DNA of 64,000 bases from Candidatus Multivoraceae bacterium (GCA_965223385.1 CBDCWR010000004.1:267258-331257), one strand, 5' to 3'; counted from the stretch's first letter, positions 16,324-64,000 are shown. The notes: a model not told the origin generated them from the sequence alone. Numbers and translations: made by a program.

Positions 16324-16445
16324 CGTGTTGGTGTGTGGGTCGCGCCTTGGAGAGCCGGGGCCATGAGGCGTGGCACACTGGCCAGAATGCGATTCATCGA
16401 CCGGACAGCTGAGGGATCTGAGGCGCGAGCTCGAGGGTGGTCCTC

Positions 16446-17617
16446 ATGAGCGCCGTGTCCTACGACCACATCGTTCTGGGCGTCGGCGGCATGGGCTCCG
16501 CGACGCTCTTCGAGCTGGCACGGCGCGGGCACCGCGTGCTCGGGCTCGAGCGCTTCGACGTTCCCCATGCAATGGGCTCGAGCCACGGGCAGACGCGCAT
16601 CATCCGGCTCGCGTACAACGAGCACTCGAACTACGTTCCGCTCCTGCAGCGCGCCTACGAGCTCTGGGACGAGCTCGAGACTCGAGCCGGAGAAGAGCTG
16701 CTCGTGCGGACCGGCGGCCTCGACGTCGGGCCACGGGACGGGCGGATCGTCTCTGGCTCCCTCGCTGCCTGCCGCGAGCATGGTCTGGACCACGAGCTCA
16801 TGGACGCGGAGGAAGCTCGAAGGCGCTACCCGGGGCTTGCGGTCGACGACACATTCTCGGCCGTTTTCCAGCCCGACGCGGGCTACCTGCGGCCGGAGCG
16901 CTGTGTGGTCTCCTACGCGGCGGCCGCGCTCGAGCGCGGAGCGACGATTCACGCGCGCGAGCCTGTTGTCTCCTGGAGCCACGATGGCGACGTCTACCGT
17001 GTCGACACGACCAAGGGGCAGTACGAAACGCCCTCGTTGGTCGTCACCGCTGGGCCATGGGCCGCGCAGATGATCGCGGAGCTGGGCCCCTGGGCCCGCC
17101 CCCAGCGGCAGGTCGTCGGCTGGTTCCAGCCGCATCGACCCGAGCTGTTCGCGAGGGACCACCTTCCCGTCTTCATCCTCGATCTCGAGGAGGGGGAGTA
17201 CTACGGCTTTCCGATCGACTCCCAGATGCCGGGGTTCAAGATCGGGCGCTTCTACCATCGCGAGCAGTGGGTCGATCCGGACGAGCCGCGGGCTGAGGCA
17301 GACCTGCCGAAGACGAAGAGATCCTGCGGCAGGCCGTGCGCCGTTGTTTCCCGCAGGCTGATGGTCCGACGCTCGCGCTTCAGACCTGCACCTTCACTCT
17401 CACGCCCGACCACCACTTCATTCTCGATCTCCCGAAGTCGTGCAACGGAGAAGCGAGCCCGGGCCTCGTTCTCGGAGCCGGCTTCTCGGGCCACGGCTTC
17501 AAGTTCGCGAGCGTGATCGGAGAGATCCTGGCCGATCTCGCCGAAGCGGGGAGCACCTCGCACGACGTCGAGATGTTCTCCCTCGCGCGCTTCGAAGCGG
17601 CGTGCTCGGCGCGGTAG
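16446..17617 (+). pseudogene. solA: Monomeric sarcosine / N-methyltryptophan oxidase-like FAD enzyme, interrupted by a 1-nt frameshift near 17303-17311
   Basis: N-terminal FAD motif (YDHIVLGVGGMGSA...GLERF) lies in the frame of ORF 16437..17516. The C-terminal part (EDEEILRQAVRRCFPQADGPTLALQTCTFTLTPDHHFILD...GFSGHGFKF) lies in the frame of ORF 17336..17617. The first frame turns to junk after DPDEPRAEADLP. Confidence 0.8.
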
Positions 17618-17690
17618 AATACCACGCCTGCGCTCGCCCATCATTCGCAGACCGCTCCAAGCGCAGCTTCGCTGCGCGTCGCTTCGTCTG
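17609..17690. repeat. Single dispersed copy of the structured repeat family seen in the array at 40040-40683
   Basis: ACCACGCCTGCGC...CCGCTCCAAGC-GCAGC-TTC-GCTGC-GCGTCGCTTCG aligns to copy 4 of the array (ACCACGCCTGCGC...CGCTCCAAGC...GCGTCGCTTGG), and the inner stem covaries. It sits between convergent stops and overlaps the 3' tail of the gene at 17641. Confidence 0.6.
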
Positions 17691-18300
17691 CTCGCTGCGC
17701 TCGCGGACGGTCGGGCGCCGGAGGCGCCCTTCTCGTCGAGCTCGGCGCGGCTGAGTACCCGCGCCTGCGCTCGTCAGCGCTCGCCGGCGGCGTCGACGAC
17801 GTGTGGCCGGCGCGCACGCACCAGCTGGTGTCGGTCCGCTCCATGAGGCCGGTCATCACGCCGCTGAACTGGAAGCCACCCTGCTCCGGGTCGCCGAATG
17901 CGTTGGTGAACGCGGCGCTCCACCAGGCCTGTTTCGAGCTCGTGGGGGTGACGAACAGATCGCGGAAGTCGAAGCGCACCGTCCCGAAGCTGGCCGCCTG
18001 CTCGAGCCCTCGGGCGATGTCGGCGCGCGACGTGTACGCGAGGCGCCCCTCCTCGAACCAGCGCAGGTCGCCTTCGCAGTAGAACGTGAGTGCGTCCTCC
18101 GAGCCGTTCTGGAGGTGGTCTCGATACGCGTCGAACGCCGTTTCGATGCCGGCTCGGATCTCGCCGAGGTCCGGCGCTTCGGCGATCGAGGGAGTCGACT
18201 CCCCGGCGCAAGCGAGGAGGGGGAGGAGTGTCGCGGCCCAGAGCACGGAGATCGTCGCAAGAGCGCGGCGACGCGCGATGGCGGAGGGGTGGCGTTGCAT
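17641..18300 (-). CDS. Putative lipoprotein with an NTF2/SnoaL-like (DUF4440-like) domain and a low-complexity C-terminal tail
   Basis: Internal ATG (residue 89 of the ORF) gives MQRHPSAIARRRALATISVLWAATLLPLLACAG (lipobox LLAC). The roughly 130-aa domain ends at ...TSWCVRAGH. The remaining roughly 50 aa are Arg/Pro/Ala-rich and read into the repeat element. Confidence 0.5.
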   Translation of the reverse strand: MQRHPSAIARRRALATISVLWAATLLPLLACAGESTPSIAEAPDLGEIRAGIETAFDAYRDHLQNGSEDALTFYCEGDLRWFEEGRLAYTSRADIARGLEQAASFGTVRFDFRDLFVTPTSSKQAWWSAAFTNAFGDPEQGGFQFSGVMTGLMERTDTSWCVRAGHTSSTPPASADERRRGYSAAPSSTRRAPPAPDRPRAQRADEATRSEAALGAVCE

Positions 18301-20178: not shown

Positions 20179-21912
20179 CTAGGGGTCGTCGTGCAGGTCG
20201 AGGCCCTGGCCAGTGGTGTCGTAGAGCGGATCCGTGTTCGGCACCGCGTCAGCCCAGAGGAATCCATCGCTCCAGAGGAGGCCGTCGGCCCAGAGGAACC
20301 CGTCAGCCCACAGGAACCCGTCGCTCCAGAGGAAGCCGTCGGCCCAGAGGAACCCGTCAGCCCAGAGGAACCCGTCGCTCCAGAGAAAGCCGTCCGACCA
20401 GAGGAACCCATCAGCCCACAGGAAGCCCGCGCTCCACTCCTCGTCACCCCAGAGCTGTGCCGTGTCTTCGACGTAGATGACGTTGGCTTCGTCGGAGCGC
20501 CCCATTTTCGGGGACAGAGCCGCCGTGACGCTTCCGGTCTCGTCGAGCGCGGCTTGGATGTCGAGCACCCCGGCACCGGTCGCGGTGGGCGAGCCGGAGA
20601 TCTTGCGCGCAGAGCGCATGAGCCGTGCTTTGACCGTTGCCGGCGTGAGGCTCGGGTCCTGCTCGACCATCAGAGCAGCTGCGCCTGACACCATGGCGGC
20701 GGCCATGCTCGTGCCCGACAGCTCGAGGTAGGCCTGGTTGTTGGGCATGAGGCGCTGGGGGAGCAGGTTCTTCAATGCGCCCTCGTACGACACCGGCTCC
20801 ACCACCCGGTTGCCGGGGGCGACCAGATCGGGCTTGAGCACGTGATCGAAGGCGGTCGGCCCCTGGGAGGAGTAGGTCGAAATGTAGTCGTCGCTGGTGT
20901 CGGCGGTGCCGCTGTCGGTCACCGAACCGACGGTGACGACCTTGCGCGAGTTGCCGGGGCTCGTGATGGTGAAGTTGCCGTCGCGGCCGTGGTTGCCGGC
21001 GGATACGACCACCACGACGCCGGCGTCCCACACCGCTTCGACGGCGGCCACCAAGGGATCGTCGGCCGCGGCCTCTTCGATGGCCTTGCCCAATGACAGG
21101 TTCGCCACGCGGACGTTGTACGCGCTGGCGTTGCCGACGAGCCAGTCGAGCGCCGCGATGACGTCGGACGTCGTTCCTCGACCCTGGGAGTCCAGGACCC
21201 GCAGGGACAGGATGTCGACGTAGGGGGCGACGCCACGAAGCTGGCCGCCGTTGGAGTAGCCGTCGCCGGCGATCAGGCCGGCGACGTGCGTACCGTGGCC
21301 CCAGGGGTCGCCGGGCCCGGAGGTGTTCGAAGAGGGGTTGCCGACGAAGTCGAACTGCATGTGTGTGGGCCAGAGATCGGTGTGGAAGCCCACGCCGGAG
21401 TCGAGGACGGCGACGCGCAAGCCGTTGCTTGTGATGCTCCAGTCGATCGGGTAGAGCGGGTGGTTGGCGGTTGCGAGGGCTGATTCGGACAGATCTTCGA
21501 CTGCATCGTCGTGCGAGACGAGCTCCACGTTGGGTGCCTTCGCGAGCTGAGTGAGACGCTTCGCGGGAATGCGAAGTGCGGCCATCCGCAGGTTGGAGAA
21601 AGGTCGGACGTCGGTCGCGCCCAGTGCTTCGAGTCGAGCGAGGTCGGCCGCGATGGGACTGGAGCGATAGGTCACGATCGCATGGAGTGTGGACTCGGGT
21701 GACTGCGTGGCAACGAGATGGGCCTTGGCGCTGACGCGGGCGTGGGAGCGTGGCGTGCTTTCGACGGACCGCTTCGTGAGTTGGCTCAGGAGAGGCGCGG
21801 AGCACAGCTGGAGAGCGGCGAGGACGATCGCTACGAATGGGAGAAACCGCCAGCTCGAGGTTCGCGAAGCAGGGTCGCAGTGGATGGAATGAGAGTGAAG
21901 AATGTAGGGCAT
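20179..21912 (-). CDS. Subtilisin-like S8 serine peptidase with a C-terminal GFLW(A/S)D hexapeptide repeat region
   Basis: Catalytic triad motifs VAVLDSGV, GHGTHVAG and SGTSMAAAMVSG. The N-terminal hydrophobic signal is followed by an inhibitor_I9-like propeptide. Start is ATG at 21912 (GGAG 6 nt upstream) or 21924 (MELT...). The rest of the 1449-aa ORF is antisense read-through. Confidence 0.85.
   Translation of the reverse strand: MPYILHSHSIHCDPASRTSSWRFLPFVAIVLAALQLCSAPLLSQLTKRSVESTPRSHARVSAKAHLVATQSPESTLHAIVTYRSSPIAADLARLEALGATDVRPFSNLRMAALRIPAKRLTQLAKAPNVELVSHDDAVEDLSESALATANHPLYPIDWSITSNGLRVAVLDSGVGFHTDLWPTHMQFDFVGNPSSNTSGPGDPWGHGTHVAGLIAGDGYSNGGQLRGVAPYVDILSLRVLDSQGRGTTSDVIAALDWLVGNASAYNVRVANLSLGKAIEEAAADDPLVAAVEAVWDAGVVVVVSAGNHGRDGNFTITSPGNSRKVVTVGSVTDSGTADTSDDYISTYSSQGPTAFDHVLKPDLVAPGNRVVEPVSYEGALKNLLPQRLMPNNQAYLELSGTSMAAAMVSGAAALMVEQDPSLTPATVKARLMRSARKISGSPTATGAGVLDIQAALDETGSVTAALSPKMGRSDEANVIYVEDTAQLWGDEEWSAGFLWADGFLWSDGFLWSDGFLWADGFLWADGFLWSDGFLWADGFLWADGLLWSDGFLWADAVPNTDPLYDTTGQGLDLHDDP
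20248..20430 (-). repeat. Ten tandem 18-bp coding repeats (GFLWAD/GFLWSD) inside the S8 peptidase gene
   Basis: Protein reads AGFLWADGFLWSDGFLWSDGFLWADGFLWADGFLWSDGFLWADGFLWADGLLWSDGFLWAD. The DNA units differ at synonymous positions. Confidence 0.9.
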
Positions 21913-22272
21913 GGTCAACTCCATCGAGGTTCGTCGCCGGGCGGCGACGTGGACACCTACAGGGTGCGCCGAGTCGAAGAGCAAGTGGTGTGCCAGCAAA
22001 AACGGTGACTCTGGCCCGAGATTTACGAGTTGTTGTCGTCGGCCGCTGCACTCGAGGCCCCTTGGAGTCGCCGGAACGGAGAGAACGGTGCGCCGGGGAA
22101 AAAAGTGGCGCTCGATCTCGAACCGGTTCTGTGCGAGCGACAGCGCCTGTGGTCTGGCCCGGCGCTTGGAGGACCGAGCGCACTCGGCTGACAGACCGCG
22201 GTGTCGAAGAGACCTGGCACTGGGAGTAGAGTCGAACCACGATTCTGATTTGCAGCGGCACGGGGGAGCACG

Positions 22273-23241
22273 ATGAGGTACACGAAACTCGGCAGGACGG
22301 GGCTCGAGGTCTCGCGCATCTGCCTGGGCTGCATGAGCTACGGCAAGGAGACGCCGGGCGTGCACGACTGGGCCCTGCTCGAGGACGAGGCGCGGCCGTT
22401 CCTGCAGAAGGCTCTGGAAGAGGGGATCACCTTCTTCGACACCGCCAACGCATACTCGGTGGGCACGAGCGAGGAGGTCCTCGGCCGCGCGCTCCGCGAC
22501 ATGGCGCACCGCGACGAGGTGGTGATCGCCACCAAGGTCTACTTCCCCGTGCGGAAGGGAAAAAACGCCCGCGGGCTCTCCCGCAAGTCCATCCTGGCGG
22601 AGCTCGACAACAGCCTGCGTCGCCTGGGCACAGACTACGTCGACCTCTACCAGATCCATCGTTGGGACGATCGCACGCCGATCGAAGAGACGATGCGCGC
22701 CCTCCACGATGCGGTGGAGTCGGGGAAGGTCCGGTACATCGGCGCCTCCTCGATGTACGCCTGGCAGTTCAGCAAGGCGCAGTACACCAGCGAGCTGCGC
22801 GGCTGGCACAAGTTCGTGAGCATGCAGAACCACTACAACCTGCTGCATCGCGAGGAGGAGCGGGAGATGATGCCGCTGTGCGTCGACCAGGGCGTCGGGG
22901 TCATTCCGTGGAGCCCGCTCGCGCGCGGCAAGCTCACCCGCGACTGGGAGACGCAGACCAAGCGCACGGAGACCGACCACAACCGCGACGAGATCTACCT
23001 GCAGGCCGGCGGGCGCGGCGTGGTGGAGCGTGTCGCCGAGATTGCCGAGGAGCGCGGCATCTCGCGGGCCCAGGTTGCGCTCGCCTGGATGTTGTCCAAG
23101 TCGTTCGTGACGGCGCCGATCGTGGGCGCGACCAAGATGCACCACCTCGAAGACGCGCTGGCCGTAGTCGATGTCGAGCTGAGCGCAGAGGAGATCGAGC
23201 GTCTGGAGGAGCCGTACGAGATGCGGCATCGAGGCTTCTAG
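22273..23241 (+). CDS. Aldo/keto reductase
   Basis: MRYTKLGRTGLEVSRICLGCMSYG. AKR motifs FFDTANAYS, DLYQIHRWD and IGASS. SD GGGGGAG lies upstream. Confidence 0.9.
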   Translation: MRYTKLGRTGLEVSRICLGCMSYGKETPGVHDWALLEDEARPFLQKALEEGITFFDTANAYSVGTSEEVLGRALRDMAHRDEVVIATKVYFPVRKGKNARGLSRKSILAELDNSLRRLGTDYVDLYQIHRWDDRTPIEETMRALHDAVESGKVRYIGASSMYAWQFSKAQYTSELRGWHKFVSMQNHYNLLHREEEREMMPLCVDQGVGVIPWSPLARGKLTRDWETQTKRTETDHNRDEIYLQAGGRGVVERVAEIAEERGISRAQVALAWMLSKSFVTAPIVGATKMHHLEDALAVVDVELSAEEIERLEEPYEMRHRGF

Positions 23242-23247
23242 GGGCTC

Positions 23248-24039
23248 ATGACGCTCAACGCGCGAGGGCGCTTCGAGGCCCTGGACGAGGAGCTGCGCGA
23301 ACGTGGGTTCGGGCCGGGGGTCTGCCGCTCCGGATCGAAGTCGCTGCACATGTGGTGGTGGGGCCGGCTCGGGGGTCGGGACGCGACGTTGCGCATCGAG
23401 TCGACGGGCACCGGCTGGGAGACCGACACCCTCGGTCCGGAGCAGTGGGCCGGCTACGTCTTCGAGCTCGGTCTGGAGACGCCGGTCGCCGTGCGACTCC
23501 GGCTGCCTGAGGCACGCTGGGCACGCTCGATCTGGGCGAGCTTCGCGCGCGGGCGGGGCTATGTCTTCCTGCGCCCGCTGACCGGCATCGAGGGGCGAGT
23601 GGTGCAGACGACGCACGAGACCTGGGCCGAGCGCATGGCCGCCAGCGAGCGGGCGGTGGGTGCGCTGAGGGAGCTGCTCGAAGGGGAGCCGCGCGGAGAC
23701 GGTCCATCGCAGTGGCCGGAGGAGCCGACCGTCTCCATGGGACCGACGCCGAAGGGTGGCGCGTTCGTCTATCGCAGCCGGCGGCTCCCGGGCCGCGCTC
23801 TCGGGCCCGATCTTCTCGTTGACCTCGCCCGGCGGATGTCCGCGTTTCTCGAGGTCGTCGAGGAGCTTCCCGAACCGGAGCGGCCCGCGCGTCCCTCGGT
23901 TCTCAGCTGGATCGAGAGCCGGGCGCACGTCCTGACACGGGTACGCAACGTCGTCTTCGTCGCGCTCTCCGTGCTCGCAGTCGTGGCGATCGTCTACATG
24001 CTGGCCATCCAGATGCTGTTCGAGGGGATGACCCGCTAG
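23248..24039 (+). CDS. Hypothetical protein with a C-terminal transmembrane anchor
   Basis: Non-repetitive composition. Single C-terminal TM (VVFVALSVLAVVAIVYMLAIQML). Starts 6 nt after the AKR stop. No recognisable motifs. Confidence 0.5.
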   Translation: MTLNARGRFEALDEELRERGFGPGVCRSGSKSLHMWWWGRLGGRDATLRIESTGTGWETDTLGPEQWAGYVFELGLETPVAVRLRLPEARWARSIWASFARGRGYVFLRPLTGIEGRVVQTTHETWAERMAASERAVGALRELLEGEPRGDGPSQWPEEPTVSMGPTPKGGAFVYRSRRLPGRALGPDLLVDLARRMSAFLEVVEELPEPERPARPSVLSWIESRAHVLTRVRNVVFVALSVLAVVAIVYMLAIQMLFEGMTR

Positions 24040-24046
24040 TGGAGCT

Positions 24047-25399
24047 TCAGCTGCAGCTCGAGTACAGGCGGAAGCCAGCCCAGTAGAGCGGCTCTCGTGC
24101 GTCGAGCCGCACGGCTCCGCCCACGTCGATGGGCCCGGAGATGAGCTCCAGCTGGCCGTGCCGGAGCGCCTCCGCCGCCGAAGCGCCCTCGGCCAGTGCG
24201 GCGTAGACGTGGCCGAAGAGGATGGGTGACGCGTCGTCCGGCGCGAGCCACAGGGTGAGGAGGGCCTGGTCGAAGCCGGCGGGCGCCATGCGTGCGGCGA
24301 GCTCGGTGGGTGTGCCGAGCGCGCTCTCCGCGCTGGCCGCCGGCGTGAGGAAGTTGCGCGCGTTCTCTTCGCCCGCCTCCCGGCCACTGCGGTCGGGCTG
24401 GAGACCCGACAGCACGAGCAGCGCGGACTCGCCCTGCACCAGCTCAGGAAGCTCGCGCAGCGGCAGGAGGTCGGGGCGGGCGGACGCATCGCCGGCACTG
24501 AGCTCGAGCGTCGCCACCGAGAGCGCATGGCCTTCCACGACGTTCGCGCCGAGGTGAAGCAGGCGCACGGGAGAACGAGCGCGGAGCGCGGCGCGTCCAG
24601 CCTCGGTCCCCACGAGCATGGCGGTGTGGTCGAAGGCGCTCTCCAGGGCCTGCGCCTCCTGACGCCGGGCGGCGCTGCGGCGCCACGAGACGCCGGCGTC
24701 GCTCATCGAAGCCCCGAGGGGGCGCGACGTGAGCCGGAACTCCGGATCGACGAGCGCGACGAGCGTGCCCTGGGGATCGAAGGCCGCGCCGCGGCCCAGA
24801 TCGCCGAGCTCGGACAGGTGGCAGACGGCCGCGTGCTCCACGAGGTGGCCACGCCGGCGGTCGACGGATCGGGGCACGCGCAGGGTGGCGAACGGCAGAT
24901 CGTCCAGCACCGGATCGGCGTGGATCACGACCCGCGTCGACGCAGCCAGGATCTCCGCGACCGGGCCGAGCAGCTCGTCGCCCAGGTCGTCCGTGAGTCG
25001 GAGCAGCTGGCCGCGTGCGGGCCGCGAGCCGCTGCCGAGGAGCCGGTAGACCTCGCGCACCGCGCCTGCGAGCTGCTCGGGGGTGCGTCCGAGCACTCGA
25101 GGGTGGGTGATTTCGTCGCCCGTCACCGCGAGGACGGCGATGCGCGTTGGAGGAGTCGGCAGGGCCCCGAAGACGAGGAGCGTCTCACCCGGCTCCAGTG
25201 CCGCCTGGATCTCGCCGGGCGTCGAGCGGTCGCTCGGCGTTCCGAGCAGTCGCGCTCGGGCCGCTTGGACCGACGTGAGGAACGCCTGCGCGTCGACGTC
25301 AGGCGCGTCCTGCGCTTGGGCGGATGCCGCCAACGTCAGCGCCAGCGCCGCCGCGATCGCGCGGCTCCGGCCTTTGACCGTTCTCACGGGGCGACGCAC
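24047..25399 (-). CDS. Secreted CHAT-domain-like protein lacking the canonical catalytic His/Cys
   Basis: GTG at 25399 or 25387 gives VRRPVRTVKGRSRAIAAALALTLAASAQAQ (signal peptide). The C-terminal half matches the CHAT layout (LLHLGANVVEGH ... ALLVLSGLQPD ... ALLTLWLAPDDASPILFGHVYAAL...AEALR). The positions normally HG and C read N and G. Confidence 0.55.
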   Translation of the reverse strand: MRRPVRTVKGRSRAIAAALALTLAASAQAQDAPDVDAQAFLTSVQAARARLLGTPSDRSTPGEIQAALEPGETLLVFGALPTPPTRIAVLAVTGDEITHPRVLGRTPEQLAGAVREVYRLLGSGSRPARGQLLRLTDDLGDELLGPVAEILAASTRVVIHADPVLDDLPFATLRVPRSVDRRRGHLVEHAAVCHLSELGDLGRGAAFDPQGTLVALVDPEFRLTSRPLGASMSDAGVSWRRSAARRQEAQALESAFDHTAMLVGTEAGRAALRARSPVRLLHLGANVVEGHALSVATLELSAGDASARPDLLPLRELPELVQGESALLVLSGLQPDRSGREAGEENARNFLTPAASAESALGTPTELAARMAPAGFDQALLTLWLAPDDASPILFGHVYAALAEGASAAEALRHGQLELISGPIDVGGAVRLDAREPLYWAGFRLYSSCS

Positions 25400-39583: not shown

Positions 39584-40039
39584 ATGAAGCACGTTTCGAT
39601 CGTTCTGGCCCTCGCACTCGCCGGTCTCGTTCTCGCCCCGATCGGTGGGTCCGTGCTCGGTGACTCCTCGTCCGCCCTGCTGGCGCAGGGAACGTGTGCG
39701 ACGAACGCGACCACGCTGTGCGTGAACAACGATCGCTTCGAGATCACCATCTCGTTCACCACGAACAACGGGGACAGCGGTGTCGGACAGGCGCAGAAGC
39801 TCACCGACGACACGGGCTACTTCTGGTTCTTCGACCAGGCGAACGTCGAGGTGGTCGTGAAGGTGCTCGACGGCTGTGTCATCAACGGCAAGTTCTGGGT
39901 CTTTGCGGGCGGCCTGACCGACGTCGAGGTCACCATGACCATTCGCGACACGCAGAGCGGGGCGGTGAAGACCTTCGTCAACCCGCAGAAGACGCCGTTC
40001 GATCCCGTCCAGGACACCAGCGCGTTCATGACCTGTTAG
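39584..40039 (+). CDS. Small secreted protein with a conserved uncharacterised domain (TLCVNNDRFEI...TGYFWFF...VKVLDGC..NGKFWVFAGGLTDVE)
   Basis: ATG at residue 21 with GGAG upstream. Signal MKHVSIVLALALAGLVLAP. I recall this motif pattern as recurrent in environmental bacterial proteins but cannot name a family. Confidence 0.6.
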   Translation: MKHVSIVLALALAGLVLAPIGGSVLGDSSSALLAQGTCATNATTLCVNNDRFEITISFTTNNGDSGVGQAQKLTDDTGYFWFFDQANVEVVVKVLDGCVINGKFWVFAGGLTDVEVTMTIRDTQSGAVKTFVNPQKTPFDPVQDTSAFMTC

Positions 40040-40683
40040 AGCTGGTGGATACCAGCTCCAACAGGTCCGGAGTCGATGCTCCTGCCGCTTCGCGGCATCC
40101 GCGCTCCAAGCCGCCTTCGGCGGCGTCGCTTGGCAGCTGAGGCTGATCGCTATCAGCTCCAACAGGTCTGGAGTCGATGCTCCGTTCCCTGACGGGAACT
40201 CCGCGCTCCAAGCCGCCTTCGGCGGCGTCGCTTGGCGTGGCTAGAGCTTGGTAGTGCGTAGAGTCTCTGGTGCCAAGCGCGCCCGTAGGGCGCTGCGCGG
40301 AAGCGGCGTGAGCCGCTGGAGTGTCGACCAGGGCGGAGCGGAGGCTGGTACGCACCAGCCGAGCACCGCCGGCGCTCCAAGCCGCCCTCCGGGCGTGCCC
40401 TGTGAGCACGCGTGCCCTGCGGGCACGTTGCAGTTTGGCAGACCAAACGTGCTGCGCGTCGCTGACGTGCTCGGCGTGGTCACTACCACGCCTGCGCGCG
40501 TCCTGTTCGATGCTCCTGCCGCTGCGCGGCATCCGCGCTCCAAGCTCGCTGACGCTCGCGTCGCTTGGCGGCCAGAGCTGACGCTTTGTCGGCTCCAGCA
40601 GGTCCGCGTTGATGCCCCTGTCGCTTTGCGGCATCTTGACGGGCTCCTCGCTTCGCTCCCAGCCGTCGGCGGTCGCGCCTGGG
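40040..40683 (+). repeat. Tandem array of five roughly 100-bp structured repeat units (hairpin1 - CCAACAGGTCYGGAGTCGATGCTCC - hairpin2 - TCCGCGCTCCAAGC - hairpin3 - GCGTCGCTTGG)
   Basis: Copies lie at about 40040-40134, 40135-40236, 40237-40470 (expanded and divergent), 40473-40570 and 40575-40683. Stems differ in sequence but stay complementary. Hairpin1: AGCTGGT/ACCAGCT, GCTGAT/ATCAGC, GCTGGT/ACCAGC, GGCGTGGT/ACCACGCC. Hairpin2: TGCCGC/GCGGCA versus GTTCCC/GGGAAC. Confidence 0.8.
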
Positions 40684-40750
40684 GCCGCTCCGGCGGCGTC
40701 TTGTCGCGGCTAGACTGGCTGCATGACGAGTCGAGTCGACGGGTGCGGGC

Positions 40751-41623
40751 ATGCGGACGCGTGACTTCGGGACGACCGGCTGGCGCCTGAGCGCGATCGG
40801 CTTCGGTGGGGTTCCGCTTTCGTTCGGTCAGCGGCCTGCGGAGGCGGATGCGGTCGCTCTGCTCCATCTGGCCTTCGACTGCGGCATCAACGTGGTGGAC
40901 ACCGCCAACGCCTACTGTCGCGACTCCTCGGAGGAGGGGCACAACGAGCGGCTGATCGGCCGCGCGTTGGCAAAGCTTCCCGCCGCCGAGCGCAACCGCA
41001 TCAAGGTGTTCACCAAGGGCGGATACACGCGGCCGGGCGGGGCATGGCGGCCGGACGGTCGGCCGGAGCATCTGCGGGCTGCGTGTGAGGGCTCTCTCCG
41101 CGCACTGGGCACGGAGCGCATCGACCTCTACCAGCACCACACTCCAGACCCCGACGTGCCGGTCGCCGAGACGGTCGGAGAGATGGCCCGTCTCCAGGAC
41201 GAGGGGAAGATCGAGCACATCGGCGTGAGCAACTACTCGGTCGAGCAGATCGAGGCTGCGGCGGCGATCACGACGATCCAGAGCGTGCAGAACGAGTACT
41301 CTCCCCGGCACCGGGCGCCCGAGGAGGACGGGACGCTCGCGCACACGGCGGAGAAGGGGATGGCGTTCGTGCCGTGGAGTCCCCTCGGTGGCCTCGGAGC
41401 GGCGCAGTCTCTGGCCCAGAGGCGCGGTGCGCTCGCCGAGATCTCCGCCCGGCTCGGCGTCAGCCCCCAGCGGCTCGCGCTCGCGTGGCTGCTGCACCAG
41501 GGTGAGCACGTCTTCCCCATTCCGGGCGCGAGTCGCCCAGCGACGCTGCAGGATTCAGCGCAAGCCGCCGACCTCGACCTCGAGCCCGCGGTGGTCGAGC
41601 GGCTCGCCCGCGAGCTCCGCTGA
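40751..41623 (+). CDS. Aldo/keto reductase
   Basis: MRTRDFGTTGWRLSAIGFGG. Motifs VVDTANAY, DLYQHH, IGVSNY, PIPGASR. Confidence 0.9.
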   Translation: MRTRDFGTTGWRLSAIGFGGVPLSFGQRPAEADAVALLHLAFDCGINVVDTANAYCRDSSEEGHNERLIGRALAKLPAAERNRIKVFTKGGYTRPGGAWRPDGRPEHLRAACEGSLRALGTERIDLYQHHTPDPDVPVAETVGEMARLQDEGKIEHIGVSNYSVEQIEAAAAITTIQSVQNEYSPRHRAPEEDGTLAHTAEKGMAFVPWSPLGGLGAAQSLAQRRGALAEISARLGVSPQRLALAWLLHQGEHVFPIPGASRPATLQDSAQAADLDLEPAVVERLARELR

Positions 41624-58383: not shown

Positions 58384-58559
58384 AGGAGGCGGCCGTGGCC
58401 GGCGGTCTCGACCCCAGCGAATGTCTCGAGGCCCTCCTCGTGCTCGGTGTGCTCGAGCACGCCGAGTTGGCCGGGGGTGCTGCCACGCAGGCGCTGCTCG
58501 CGTACGAGCTGGCTCAGATCGAGGGGCGCCTCGATCTCGACTTCATCCGCTCGCGCTGA
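58338..58559 (+). CDS. Small hypothetical protein (73 aa)
   Basis: ATG with AAGGGAG 8 nt upstream. Helical, non-repetitive sequence. Overlaps the tail of the upstream lipoprotein ORF by 46 nt. Confidence 0.4.
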   Translation: MATKYSIARDCLLQVKEAAVAGGLDPSECLEALLVLGVLEHAELAGGAATQALLAYELAQIEGRLDLDFIRSR

Positions 58560-58616
58560 GCGCGAGACATCCGCTCGCGCTGAGCGCGAGACATCCGCTC
58601 GCGCGAGCCGCGAGGC
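58544..58616. repeat. 2.5 tandem copies of a 24-bp hairpin unit (CATCCGCTCGCGCTGAGCGCGAGA) between convergent genes; likely a bidirectional terminator or REP-like element
   Basis: Each unit has a 7-bp stem CTCGCGC/GCGCGAG with loop TGA. The first loop is the stop codon of the 73-aa ORF. Confidence 0.7.
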
Positions 58617-61197: not shown

Positions 61198-64000
61198 GTG
61201 AAGCGAGAAGGGGGAGGGCGCCAATGGCAAGCCGCGGCGCACCGTGCGTCGCGCCCGCAGGGGGCTGCGGCGCGCGTGACCCGCCCGCAGGGGGCTGCGG
61301 CGCGCGTGACCCGCCTCGTGGGCCTGGCTGCTTCCTTCGTGGTCGCGCTTTCACTGTCGACTCCTGGGCTCGGGCAGACAGCGACGCCGCGCCTCCTGCA
61401 CGACATCCAGTCGGTGCCGTTCAACGGCCCCCTGAGGTCGGCTGTCAGGACCACGGTGGCCTTCGAGGGCGCCTTCTTCTACCCGGCCGACGACGGCATC
61501 CATGGCCGCGAGCTGTGGCGCAGCGACGGCACTCCTGCAGGCACCCACATGGTGCGCGACATCTGTCCGGGCGTCTGCTCCGGCCTGCCGGAGCGGCTTA
61601 CGGTGGCGGGCGGCCAGATCTTCTTCACGGCGCAGGACGGCGAGACGGGCGTGGAGCTCTGGCGGAGCGACGGCACGAAATCCGGCACGGCTCGGGTGGC
61701 AGACATCGTGCCGGGCCCGGACTCGTCGTGGCCGCTGAGTTTCACAGCCCTCGGACACCTCGTGCTCTTCGCCGCGGCGACGGCCGATCCCGGGTATGAG
61801 CTGTGGCGCTCCGATGGCTCGGCCTCGGGGACGTTTCGACTGGCCGGTATGCCGCCCAGTTGGGAAGGTGGTGATCCCTCTCAGACAGTGGTCGTCGGAG
61901 AAGTCGCGGTCTTCACAGCGAGGACAGCGGCATACGGTAGCTCTACGACCCTGTTTCGCACCGACGGCACTGTCGAGGGCACGAGGGAGCTGGTCGACTT
62001 TGCGCCGAGCAGGGTGAGCGGCGCCTTCGACAATCGGCGAGAGTCTGAGTGGCCTGTCGTGGGCAACACCGCGTATTTCTCGGTCGACTCCCGGCCGGGT
62101 GGCCGAGTCTGGAGGACGGACGGCACCGTCTCGGGCACCTTTCCGGTAGGTCCAGCCTTCTCGAGCCGCGTTCCCCGCGAGCTGCAGGCGTCGCAGGACC
62201 TCGTGGGGTTTCTGGCTCCCAGCACACCGACCGGCAACGACCGGAGCGTGTGGGTCTCGGATGGCAGTGTGGCAGGGAGCCTGGAGATCTCGTCGACGCT
62301 TTGCGACTTCCCCCTCCGTCTGAATGGCACGGAGGTTGGCCTCTTCTTCAAGTGCTACAACACCGCGAGCGGCGGAGAGGTCTGGTTCACAGATGGCACG
62401 ATCGCTGGGACGCGGCAGCTCGCCGATTTGGCTCCCGGACCGGCGCACTTCGGACTGCAGGGGCGGATGCAGCCGCTGCCCGGAGGAGTGATCTTCAGCG
62501 GCGATCGAAGTGGCGGCCAGCCGGCGTCGGTCGAGACCTGGTTCAGCAATGGAACGCCGCAAGGCACGGTTCTCTTGCCCATCACGGGGGCCGAACAGAC
62601 GCGGCAGTCTTCGCAGGTGCTGGGCGGTCGCGTCCTTTTGTGGGGCAGTGGCTTTGCGCAGCCAGTCCTCCACGTGACCGATGGCTCTCCCTCCGGAACG
62701 ATGGTCGTGGGTCCAGAGCACGCTCAGTCTTCCAGCTTCCCCCGGCAGCTCTCGGCGTTCGCCGACTCGCGGTGGTTCTTCCAGACGCTCGGCCTGGGTG
62801 GTCGGACGCCGTTCTTCCCCGACGTCTTGGAGTGGGTCGCGACGGACGGCTCCGGCCTTTCGCCGGCTTCACTTGCTCCGTACCCCGAGTGGCTCGTCCA
62901 ACCCCCATTTGCTGAGAGTGCCGGGCGTGTCTTCTTCAACTCCCGGCCCCGCTTCGCTGATCCTGCAGGAGGACCTCCCGGAGCTCTGTTTTCGGTGAGC
63001 GACCAGCTCACGGACCTCCGCATCGCGACGGGGCCGGCGGGGAACCGGCTGCAGGAGTTCCATGGCCAGGTCTACATGGGGGCGTCTCGAAGCACTCCGA
63101 CGGGAAGGGGGCTCGTGGTCGTCGATCCGGTCACCGAGCAGGTTGGCTTGATCCCGGGACCTTCACCTGCACGGGAGTATCCGTTCCTTGGGCTCGATGC
63201 GTGGCTCGAGACCGAGCAGCGGCTCTTCTTTCCGTCGGTGACGGGTTTCTGGTCCATCGACGGGCAAGGTAGTCCGCTGGACCACCTTCCTGGTGTGACG
63301 GCCAGTCATGGCCTGGCGCACTCGAGCTCCGGATACGTCTTCTTCACGGCCGAGACCCCCTCGACTGGCCGCGAGGTGTGGAGCGTGGACCCGAGCTCAG
63401 GCGCGAGCACGCTGCTCGAGATGCGTCCCGGCGTGGAGCCCGGGGTCTTCCGGGCCGATCGACTGACGGGAGACAACACCCCCTTTGTCGGTGTCGCGCT
63501 CGGCGACCTCTACCTGTTCACCGGCGACGACGGGATCACGGGCCCCGAGCTCTGGGCGACACCACCCGAGGGGCCGCCGGTGCTGCTCGCCGACATCGCA
63601 CCGGGCGCGCAGGGCTCGTACCCGCAAGCGCTGACGGTCGTGGGCGACCGGGCGCTCTTTCGGGCCAACGACGGCGCGCACGGCAGTGAGCTCTGGGTGA
63701 CGGATGGCACCGCGGACGGCACGCTCATGCTCTGCGACATTCGCGCCGGCCCGGATTCGTCCCTGCCTCTGGATCTCCAGCTGGTGGACGGCGTCCTCCT
63801 GTTCTCGGCACTGGACGAGGGTTCCGGCAGGGAGCTCTGGGTGAGTGACGGCACGGTCACTGGCACCCACCTTCTGCACGACATCGCGCCTGGAGCACAT
63901 TCGTCGAGCCCGAGCGGCTTCCTGGTGCGGTCGGACGTCGTGCTGTTCTCGGCCAACGACGCCCAGCACGGGTTCGAGCTGTGGGCGCTCGACCGACCCG
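61198..64000 (+). CDS. Large secreted ELWxxDGT-repeat protein (partial; continues beyond the right window edge)
   Basis: Own translation of frame 1, not in the ORF track because it has no stop. Signal RLVGLAASFVVALSLSTPGLGQTA. About 15 repeats at 50-60 aa spacing (GRELWRSDGTPAGT, VELWRSDGTKSGT, YELWRSDGSASGT, RVWRTDGTVSGT, EVWFTDGTIAGT, SELWVTDGTADGT, RELWVSDGTVTGT, FELWALD). GTG 61198 has GGAGG 8 nt upstream; alternative GTG starts at 61276 and 61306. Confidence 0.75.
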   Translation, partial: MKREGGGRQWQAAAHRASRPQGAAARVTRPQGAAARVTRLVGLAASFVVALSLSTPGLGQTATPRLLHDIQSVPFNGPLRSAVRTTVAFEGAFFYPADDGIHGRELWRSDGTPAGTHMVRDICPGVCSGLPERLTVAGGQIFFTAQDGETGVELWRSDGTKSGTARVADIVPGPDSSWPLSFTALGHLVLFAAATADPGYELWRSDGSASGTFRLAGMPPSWEGGDPSQTVVVGEVAVFTARTAAYGSSTTLFRTDGTVEGTRELVDFAPSRVSGAFDNRRESEWPVVGNTAYFSVDSRPGGRVWRTDGTVSGTFPVGPAFSSRVPRELQASQDLVGFLAPSTPTGNDRSVWVSDGSVAGSLEISSTLCDFPLRLNGTEVGLFFKCYNTASGGEVWFTDGTIAGTRQLADLAPGPAHFGLQGRMQPLPGGVIFSGDRSGGQPASVETWFSNGTPQGTVLLPITGAEQTRQSSQVLGGRVLLWGSGFAQPVLHVTDGSPSGTMVVGPEHAQSSSFPRQLSAFADSRWFFQTLGLGGRTPFFPDVLEWVATDGSGLSPASLAPYPEWLVQPPFAESAGRVFFNSRPRFADPAGGPPGALFSVSDQLTDLRIATGPAGNRLQEFHGQVYMGASRSTPTGRGLVVVDPVTEQVGLIPGPSPAREYPFLGLDAWLETEQRLFFPSVTGFWSIDGQGSPLDHLPGVTASHGLAHSSSGYVFFTAETPSTGREVWSVDPSSGASTLLEMRPGVEPGVFRADRLTGDNTPFVGVALGDLYLFTGDDGITGPELWATPPEGPPVLLADIAPGAQGSYPQALTVVGDRALFRANDGAHGSELWVTDGTADGTLMLCDIRAGPDSSLPLDLQLVDGVLLFSALDEGSGRELWVSDGTVTGTHLLHDIAPGAHSSSPSGFLVRSDVVLFSANDAQHGFELWALDRP
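61252..61311 (+). repeat. Perfect 30-bp tandem duplication (CGCCCGCAGGGGGCTGCGGCGCGCGTGACC x2) in the 5' end of the ELWxxDGT gene
   Basis: Read directly from the sequence. It is in frame (RPQGAAARVT x2). Each copy carries an in-frame GTG and an AGGGGG purine tract. Confidence 0.9.

Follow-up and report, generated by a model that had tools for sequence, protein, structure and literature searches.

Most descriptions of small interspersed palindromic repeats come from Proteobacteria, Firmicutes and Cyanobacteria. REPs are located mainly downstream of open reading frames (ORFs), and the palindrome of a canonical REP is flanked on one side by a tetranucleotide, GTAG or CGTC, that stays unpaired (PMC3733652). 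Compensatory changes are common in mobile REPIN hairpins, and near-identical REPINs also occur in tandem clusters (Bertels and Rainey, PMC3116915). BOX repeats were judged more likely to be parasitic, yet they are transcribed and structured (PMC3049150), and perfect stems can be generated and preserved by template switching during replication (Mönttinen and Löytynoja, PMC8794818). The locus analyzed here lies in a 64,000-nucleotide stretch of the genome of Candidatus Multivoraceae bacterium (GCA_965223385.1, CBDCWR010000004.1:267258-331257; G+C content, 68.8%), hereafter termed the window, from the first nucleotide of which positions are counted. A 711-bp spacer between the gene for a 151-amino acid hypothetical protein (P0001) and an aldo/keto reductase gene is filled with hairpin-bearing units of ~95–105 nt, and is probably a BIME-like cluster whose units belong to a dispersed family of mosaic, palindromic, non-coding DNA repeats found in a narrow clade of Acidobacteriota. 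This is most likely a new family within the small interspersed palindromic and mosaic repeats (REP/BIME/REPIN- and BOX-like), and not a REP in the strict sense.

The spacer extends from the TAG stop codon of the P0001 gene at 40037–40039 to the ATG at 40751, and no convincing ORF was found in it on the basis of codon-position G+C. Tandem Repeats Finder (TRF) detected a period of 102 nt (1.8 copies, 89% matches, score 299) at 40053–40236, and a 25-nt block, CCAACAGGTCYGGAGTCGATGCTCC, occurs twice, compared with an expectation of 0. The claim of an earlier reading, which was made from the sequence alone (the sequence-only reading), that the gap is filled with structured repeats was thus confirmed at a level far beyond chance. 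The five head-to-tail units described in that reading were replaced by a different layout: the array consists of four direct units (one of them degenerate), one full unit on the opposite strand and one partial, rearranged fragment, and the same arrangement was resolved by sensitive blastn, by an nhmmer profile and by a covariance model. What had been taken for a third direct unit was a mis-parse, because a perfect hairpin reads alike on both strands; its GCTGGT/ACCAGC hairpin is the first hairpin of a minus-strand unit at 40265–40370 (61 bits). Head-to-head and tail-to-tail junctions surround this one inverted unit (40240–40370), and the other neighboring units are mostly arranged head-to-tail.

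A consensus was derived from an alignment of 14 units from three genomes. Each unit is composed of (T)G(A/G)C-GTGCTCG (consensus 5′ block, GCGTGCTCG), hairpin 1 (hp1), linker A, hairpin 2 (hp2), TCCGCGCTCCAAGC, an inner hairpin and GCGTCGCTTGGC. The 8-bp stem of hp1 follows the pattern G-NNN-TGGT/ACCA-NNN-C with a loop of 3–5 nt, and is flanked by GTGCTCG on the 5′ side and CTGCGC on the 3′ side, whereas hp2 has 6–7 bp and usually a TTC loop. Linker A occurs in two subtypes, the A-type (CCAACAGGTCYGGAGTCGATGCTCC) and the B-type (CTGCGCTCGCCCTGTTCGATGCTC). Taken alone, hp1 (~20 nt) and hp2 (~15–17 nt) would each fit the short palindrome (20–40 nt) of a REP; the repeated unit, however, is a ~100-nt composite of three hairpins. 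The tetranucleotide CGTC is found only within hairpin 3 (hp3; GCGTCGCTTGG) and not at the foot of a hairpin. The two ends of the unit, GTGCTCG... and ...GCGTCGCTTGGC, do not form an inverted repeat, and direct duplications flanking the units were not seen. Spacings of 101 and 102 nt were observed, and the plus-strand ORFs around units 1 and 2 are interrupted (39694–40140, then 40248–40790).

In the 14-unit alignment, 85% of the cells of the three-hairpin structure are paired, compared with 30–44% when the partners are slid by 1–3 columns; 14 of the 24 pairs changed on both sides, and the covariation score was reached by none of 500 shuffles. The compensatory stem changes claimed in the sequence-only reading are therefore real, in that hp1 and hp2 keep their pairing, and every hp1 and hp2 stem listed there is present as written. 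RNAalifold independently recovered hp1 and hp2 but did not predict hp3, for which support was weak: its outer stem, CCAAGC/GCTTGG, is invariant, and in its commonest inner stem (TCGC/GCTC) half of the pairs are mismatches. Stem statistics were taken from a hand-curated table of 19 units, in which hp1 was scored in 17 and hp2 in 16. Distinct stem sequences numbered 14 for hp1 and likewise 14 for hp2, and the stems are 97% paired within a copy, as against 72% (hp1) and 68% (hp2) when arms are swapped between copies. The identity between units is ~90% for linker B and the 3′ block and 50–63% for the stem arms. The stem mismatches comprise 4 G·T and 5 A·C, and these similar numbers favor neither strand as a transcribed RNA. 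Single-sequence folding, which is uninformative at 69% GC, gave energies 1.1–2.2 standard deviations below shuffles on both strands, with z = +0.3 for unit 5.

The individual units of the array differ mainly in their stems and linker types. Unit 1 (40030–40141, plus strand; 110 bits with cmsearch, included in the seed alignment) contains the A-type linker CCAACAGGTCCGGAGTCGATGCTCC and the stems GAGCTGGT/ACCAGCTC (hp1), TGCCGC/GCGGCA (hp2) and CCAAGC-CGCC-TTC-GGCG-GCGTC-GCTTGG (hp3). Its first hairpin begins right after the stop codon, as had been noticed before, and a 17-nt inverted repeat (40030–40046/40051–40067, 94% complementary) extends hp1 over the stop codon itself and the last 7 coding bases. 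The start of the A-type linker is the reverse complement of the 3′ end of the P0001 gene (AACAGGTC vs. GACCTGTT). Unit 2 (40142–40239, plus strand, A-type; TRF period 102, 68.5 bits with cmsearch) has linkers and an hp3 identical to those of unit 1 and an unrelated hp2 (GTTCCC/GGGAAC), the hp2 of unit 1 being the same as that of unit 4. At 40240–40264, a tail-to-tail junction between unit 2 (plus) and unit 3 (minus) was read from the sequence; this junction and the adjoining ends of the two units make up an imperfect palindrome, GCTTGGTA...TGCCAAGC, from ~40249 to 40280, and a separate but related inverted repeat has its arms at 40127–40144 (unit 2) and 40262–40279 (unit 3). The inverted unit 3 (40265–40370, minus strand; 61 bits with cmsearch, E = 1e-14 with nhmmer) is complete, has a B-type linker and matches unit 1 at 69.6% over 102 nt on the minus strand in blastn; its stems are GGCTGGT/ACCAGCC (hp1), AGCGGC/GCCGCT (hp2) and GCCC/GGGC (hp3 inner stem).

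The rearranged fragment at 40371–40463 (plus strand), which was delimited from the sequence, TRF and repeat comparison, represents the hp3 part of a unit with extra palindromes, and contains GCGCTCCAAGC-CGCCC-TCC-GGGCG, a 17-nt tandem palindrome (40393–40427, TRF), a GTTTGG-CAGA-CCAAAC hairpin and the unit 3′ end GCGTCGCTGAC. It is followed by unit 4 (40464–40576, plus strand; 112.8 bits with cmsearch), with the B-type linker CTGCGCGCGTCCTGTTCGATGCTCC and the stems GGCGTGGT/ACCACGCC (hp1) and TGCCGC/GCGGCA (hp2). Unit 5 (40582–40677, plus strand; 38.9 bits with cmsearch, E = 5e-16 with nhmmer) is a degenerate A-type unit, in which hp1 (GAGCTGAC/GTCGGCTC) includes one G·T, hp2 (TGTCGC/GCGGCA) includes one T·G, and linker B and hp3 are decayed.

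A scan of the 64-kb window using the covariance model with all filters off revealed only two further pieces outside the array, both on the plus strand. The first (17599–17694; 33.4 bits with cmsearch, outside the seed) is the copy at 17.6 kb mentioned in the sequence-only reading; it does exist, albeit as a partial unit without hp2, and comprises hp1 (GGCGCGGT/ACCACGCC, one C·A), in which the TAG stop codon of a DAO-family gene (17615–17617) is located, and the hp3 module CGCTCCAAGC-GCAGC-TTC-GCTGC-GCGTCGCTT. The second is a weak fragment, GCTCGGCGCGG-loop-CCGCGCCTGCGCTCG, at 17735–17814 (22 bits with cmsearch, E = 0.008). The DAO-family FAD oxidoreductase gene that ends inside the partial unit is split over two frames (16437–17516 and 17336–17617, with PF01266 in both), reflecting a frameshift, a pseudogene or a sequencing error.

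Copies were also found in related genomes. In the metagenome-assembled genome (MAG) GCA_038748275.1 (locus L003), one unit directly follows the stop codon of the orthologous gene (TGA-CGTGCTCGG...), with stems unlike those of the window (GGGCTGGT/ACCAGCCT and GGCTGG/CCAGCC). A second, degenerate A-type-like unit comes next, and the pair aligns with units 4 and 5 of the window, unit 4 over its whole length. A 21-base pattern built from the conserved blocks gave 15 matches in 185,579 species genomes (GTDB). Nine of these were single matches in unrelated taxa, about the estimated chance level, and the other six all fell in a single MAG, “Acidobacteriota bacterium P01_C01_bin.24” (GCA_039026915.1), each on a different contig. 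With the window, this MAG shares 87% identity in its transhydrogenase beta subunit (PNTB). With a profile constructed from the window units and L003 only, and hence without any sequence of that MAG, at least 12 units were detected on its 6 contigs (E = 1e-13 to 1e-7). They include a three-unit head-to-tail array with a period of 101 (L017, 208–520), an array on the minus strand (L010, 7373–6890), again mostly head-to-tail, and single units at the L016, L005 and L009 loci; cmsearch provided independent copies at L010 6974–7061 (73 bits) and L017 886–1046 (66 bits). The latter is on the minus strand, immediately behind a DUF481 gene's stop codon, and its hp2 loop holds a nested hairpin module of 52 nt; in the L010 and L009 units, hp2 and hp3 are separated by an insert of ~120 nt that is made up of other hairpin modules.

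Five of the six pattern matches in this MAG lie <1 kb from a contig end, which is typical of repeats that break assemblies. The L006 (1–200) and L017 (1–320) ends share an exact 112-nt overlap and have similar flanks, and probably stem from a single, longer array that collapsed during assembly, which makes the repeat count in this fragmented bin uncertain; the copies represent at least 5 independent loci. The genes next to them are housekeeping genes with no relation to each other, encoding acyl-CoA dehydrogenase, metallo-beta-lactamase, PheT, altronate dehydratase, acyl-CoA carboxylase, a DUF481 protein and an IF-3-like protein. The L016 unit, between pheT and the altronate dehydratase gene, and the L009 cluster, between a MerR-TPR gene and the IF-3-like gene, are antisense to both of their neighbors. 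At five loci (unit 1, the 17.6-kb copy, L003, L010 and L017 886–1046), a co-oriented gene ends and, 0–8 nt past its stop codon, a unit starts; the orientation agrees with that of the upstream gene at 5 of ~7–8 scorable loci, a bias that is not significant. A strict pattern, TCGATGCTCC-N10-22-TCCGCGCTCCAAGC, gave 0 matches in the GTDB species genomes and one match in the JGI metagenomes, a chance match within a ferredoxin-like ORF; viral contigs gave 0 matches to the relaxed pattern, and a blastn search of plasmids with the array (“distant” setting) gave none. A more distant relative (L020, 78% PNTB identity) has no repeats after its PNTB gene, and the family thus appears, from these sequence comparisons, to be confined to a narrow clade of uncultured Acidobacteriota.

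Signals of an RNA gene were not encountered. The Rfam search, which had been suggested together with the idea of a novel non-coding RNA array, gave no match in the whole window at the gathering threshold, and only noise (a microRNA and small nucleolar RNA models, E ~0.7–8) at E ≤ 10 in 39950–40800. A promoter and terminator scan found no sigma-70-like promoter and no intrinsic terminator, and a tRNA/tmRNA scan was negative. A sigma-54-type reading of the TTGGCGTGCTCG junction was rejected by eye, its spacing being unsuitable.

The forms observed are intergenic, occur in both orientations, stand singly or in head-to-tail, head-to-head or tail-to-tail clusters, and have modules deleted or carry inserts. 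A REP/BIME-like interpretation, which was one of the two options of the sequence-only reading, is supported in kind by this dispersed family with its mosaic, truncated and nested copies. The other option, a novel non-coding RNA array, is not favored: a DNA repeat is preferred because of the inverted and antisense copies, the mosaicism, the unrelated neighbors, the balance of mismatches and the lack of RNA-gene signals, including any Rfam match. Covariation, from which RNA-level selection had been concluded, does not discriminate between an RNA and a DNA repeat, since mobile REPINs (PMC3116915) and template switching (PMC8794818) give the same signature. The family may have been spread or homogenized at the DNA level as a non-autonomous element, dependent on a trans-acting enzyme that would need the hairpins and conserved linkers; an HUH/Y1 single-strand DNA transposase, as for REPs and REPINs, would be the most plausible candidate. 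Arrays would then be built by local duplication and inversion, and stem complementarity would be kept if only hairpin-intact copies propagate, if template switching copies one arm to the other, or both, so that host selection on RNA would not be needed to account for stem pairing. Read-through transcription from the upstream gene would turn the stem-loops into a structured 3′ untranslated region (UTR), in which the first stem would bury the stop codon; this could protect the 3′ end of the mRNA and stabilize the upstream message, or dampen read-through into the aldo/keto reductase gene. Effects of this sort in the 3′ UTR have been reported for REP, BOX and ERIC-type repeats.

Several observations weigh against such a dispersed DNA repeat. 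The GTAG/CGTC tag of canonical REPs is not present at the hairpin feet, and head-to-tail arrays predominate, whereas head-to-tail REP dimers are rare (PMC3733652). Only 2 loci are present in 64 kb; neither an empty site nor a target duplication nor a product of excision was seen, and mobility is thus presumed. Pfam scans of ~45 window ORFs identified housekeeping genes only and no transposase, Y1_Tnp or integrase, which is a weak negative, as is the absence of tblastn matches to RAYT and IS608 TnpA queries in 236 kb. Units 4 and 5 look orthologous to the L003 pair, with nearly intact linkers and different stems, as could also be expected of a functional element under long-term purifying selection. 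The co-orientation and the abutment to stop codons at 5 of ~7–8 loci hint at an RNA-level or translation-linked role. What remains puzzling is that very conserved linkers occur together with hypervariable stems that are 97% paired, and that units appear to have been retained behind the same gene in two species; a functional element is an unlikely explanation of this. It is also quite unlikely that the units are either a structured element that binds a protein and was recruited by the host to stop codons, or a new kind of modular hairpin mobile DNA with a non-RAYT enzyme, two possibilities that do not exclude each other. The former, if true, would have its support in the conserved linkers, the freely covarying stems and the retention after an orthologous gene in two species; in the latter, single hairpin modules would insert themselves into other modules, in the loops as well as in the linkers.

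The units could be functional structured RNAs, either host-selected cis-acting elements of the 3′ UTR (a stabilizer, terminator or insulator) or multicopy small RNA genes, in which protein-bound single-stranded motifs are conserved and the stems are free to covary. The strong covariation of hp1 and hp2, the ~90% conservation of linker B and the 3′ block, the five loci at which a unit begins 0–8 nt past a co-oriented stop codon, and the unit 4/5 pair apparently kept after the orthologous gene in a genome with 87% PNTB identity (L003) speak for this explanation, which is nevertheless unlikely in view of the inverted unit in the array, the L016 and L009 copies antisense to both neighbors, a co-orientation that lacks significance, and copies that are truncated, mosaic or carry inserts in their loops. 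It is further opposed by the lack of a conserved gene association, by the near-equality of G·T and A·C mismatches (4 vs. 5), by folding merely 1.1–2.2 standard deviations below shuffles and alike on both strands, and by the missing promoter, terminator and Rfam match.

An origin without any mobility is very unlikely, although several features of the locus would suit it. The repeats would then have been made and homogenized locally by replication errors (template switching and slippage) together with gene conversion between sites, and the family would be a by-product of the replication and repair of this lineage rather than a transposable entity. The extension of the hp1 of unit 1 to a 17-nt palindrome on the last codons of the gene itself, the wholly replaced hp2 between units 1 and 2 with their identical linkers, the other, unrelated small hairpin tandem repeats (58538–58614, 61252–61315, the L002 family and the L003/L019 family) and the documented capacity of template switching to make and keep stems (PMC8794818) are all in its favor. 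Against it stand the near-identical units of ~100 nt beside unrelated genes on different contigs in two species: near-identical units at distant sites require sequence movement between sites, and ectopic gene conversion presupposes a homologous copy at each site. Classical MITEs (miniature inverted-repeat transposable elements, i.e., deletion derivatives of insertion sequences) and integron attC/gene-cassette sites would fit the ~100-nt size, the intergenic location and the secondary structure, but they are extremely improbable here. MITEs are disfavored by unit ends that lack terminal inverted repeats and by the lack of a visible target-site duplication; as for attC sites, the units abut without cassette ORFs, and no integrase turned up among the ~45 window ORFs scanned. 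The core sites of attC are RYYYAAC and GTTRRRY. No attC-type core sites were noticed on reading the unit sequences, for which no dedicated pattern search was run.

In the collections searched (Rfam, the GTDB species representatives, JGI metagenomes, viral contigs and plasmids), the family has no counterpart beyond one narrow clade of uncultured Acidobacteriota. It explains the assembly breaks of these MAGs at such sites, and its covariance model can be used to mask the family in screens for non-coding RNAs, where its copies would otherwise be mistaken for “covarying novel RNAs.” The scientific value is modest, and is that of a test case for RNA-level selection versus hairpin maintenance at the DNA level, by selection on the element or by template switching.

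The genes around the array are embedded in a shared order. The upstream P0001 gene (39584–40039, plus strand) has orthologues with 78% (L002) and 69% (L003) identity, in both of which hairpin repeats also follow the gene, and the order of enolase, PFK, the 151-amino acid gene, then the transhydrogenase genes, MltA and M61 peptidase is common to the window and its relatives. The C-terminus ...FMTC* is common to the three orthologous genes (window, L002 and L003); the idea that the element itself supplies the stop codon (TGAC-GTGCTCG) was rejected at this locus on account of this common end. A direct scan found no Pfam family in P0001. Its relatives are proteins of Acidobacteriota MAGs, some of the matches being annotated as Thermoanaerobaculia or Holophagales. 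The P0001 family is large (443 matches) and mostly environmental, many members having the matching region within a longer protein and a few containing PF27099, FN3 or Calx-beta domains. The downstream gene (40751–41623, plus strand) encodes an aldo/keto reductase (PF00248, E = 2.5e-62).

Other hairpin repeats were observed in the relatives and in the window. At the orthologous position in L002 (10457–11030), ~5 copies of a different hairpin repeat of ~125 nt follow the 151-amino acid gene; this repeat is bounded by a 15-nt inverted repeat, GAGCTGTCCGGGGGC...GCCCCCGGACAGCTC, and has only the short motifs GCGTGCTC and GCGTCGCT in common with the family of the window. A third repeat family, with the stems GGCGAATGAA...TTCATTCGCC and GGGGCAAACGCAG...CTGCGTTTGCCCC, is located 3′ of PNTB at L003 2660–3130 and L019 8927–9214; it is 92–94% identical between the two, whose similarity suggests that the corresponding MAGs are very closely related. 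Modules of this third family are also inserted in units of the main family (L010 and L009), and neither the L002-type nor the “GGCGAATGAA” repeat family was found in the window. Within the window, three tandem copies of a 24-nt unit with a TCGCGC-TGA-GCGCGA hairpin occupy 58538–58614, in a 237-bp gap between ORFs that are convergent according to codon-position G+C, and a perfect 30-nt tandem duplication (2.1 copies) with a CCGCAG-GGGG-CTGCGG hairpin is located at 61252–61315, again between ORFs by the same measure. A 54-nt tandem repeat with an 18-nt sub-period (20247–20436; 3.5 copies, 91% matches) lies at the 3′ end of a 1449-amino acid ORF with a subtilase S8 domain (20179–24528, minus strand), and is probably a coding repeat.

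Mycobacterial MIRU-type repeats are head-to-tail units of 50–100 bp that fill the spacer of co-oriented genes, beginning at the stop codon. The array resembles them in its tandem units, which likewise fill a spacer from the stop codon onward, and differs in its period of 101–102 nt, the lack of an open frame through the units, the one inverted unit and the antisense copies. A MIRU-like repeat coupled to coding, which would have units of a length divisible by 3 and an open frame joining the flanking genes, was ruled out by the 101/102-nt spacings and the interrupted frames. The multicopy structured non-coding RNAs of Rfam also have conserved unpaired blocks between covarying stems, whereas the present family occurs in both orientations, includes truncated and mosaic copies, lacks a promoter and terminator, and matches no Rfam model at E ≤ 10. 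With the BOX repeats of Streptococcus pneumoniae and the rhizobial RIME-type repeats (PMC3049150), the family shares a modular mosaic of variable module number and composition, extensive predicted structure, restriction to a narrow clade, an intergenic location, probable co-transcription with neighbors and the absence of a transposase of its own. There is no sequence similarity to them, host phylum and base composition differ, and modules of the present family are also nested in hairpin loops, with hp1 and hp2 stems that vary far more than the linkers. The REP/BIME/REPIN elements of Enterobacteria and Pseudomonas (PMC3733652, PMC3116915) are similarly short, GC-rich extragenic hairpins located mostly just 3′ of ORFs, with dispersed copies, clusters that include inverted copies, near-identical units in tandem, and stems that vary yet remain complementary. 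In contrast to the single palindrome of 20–40 nt or the symmetric REP doublet, the unit of the present family is a ~100-nt composite of three hairpins, which has no GTAG/CGTC tag at the hairpin foot, is arranged predominantly head-to-tail, and is most conserved in its linkers rather than in the stems of hp1 and hp2.

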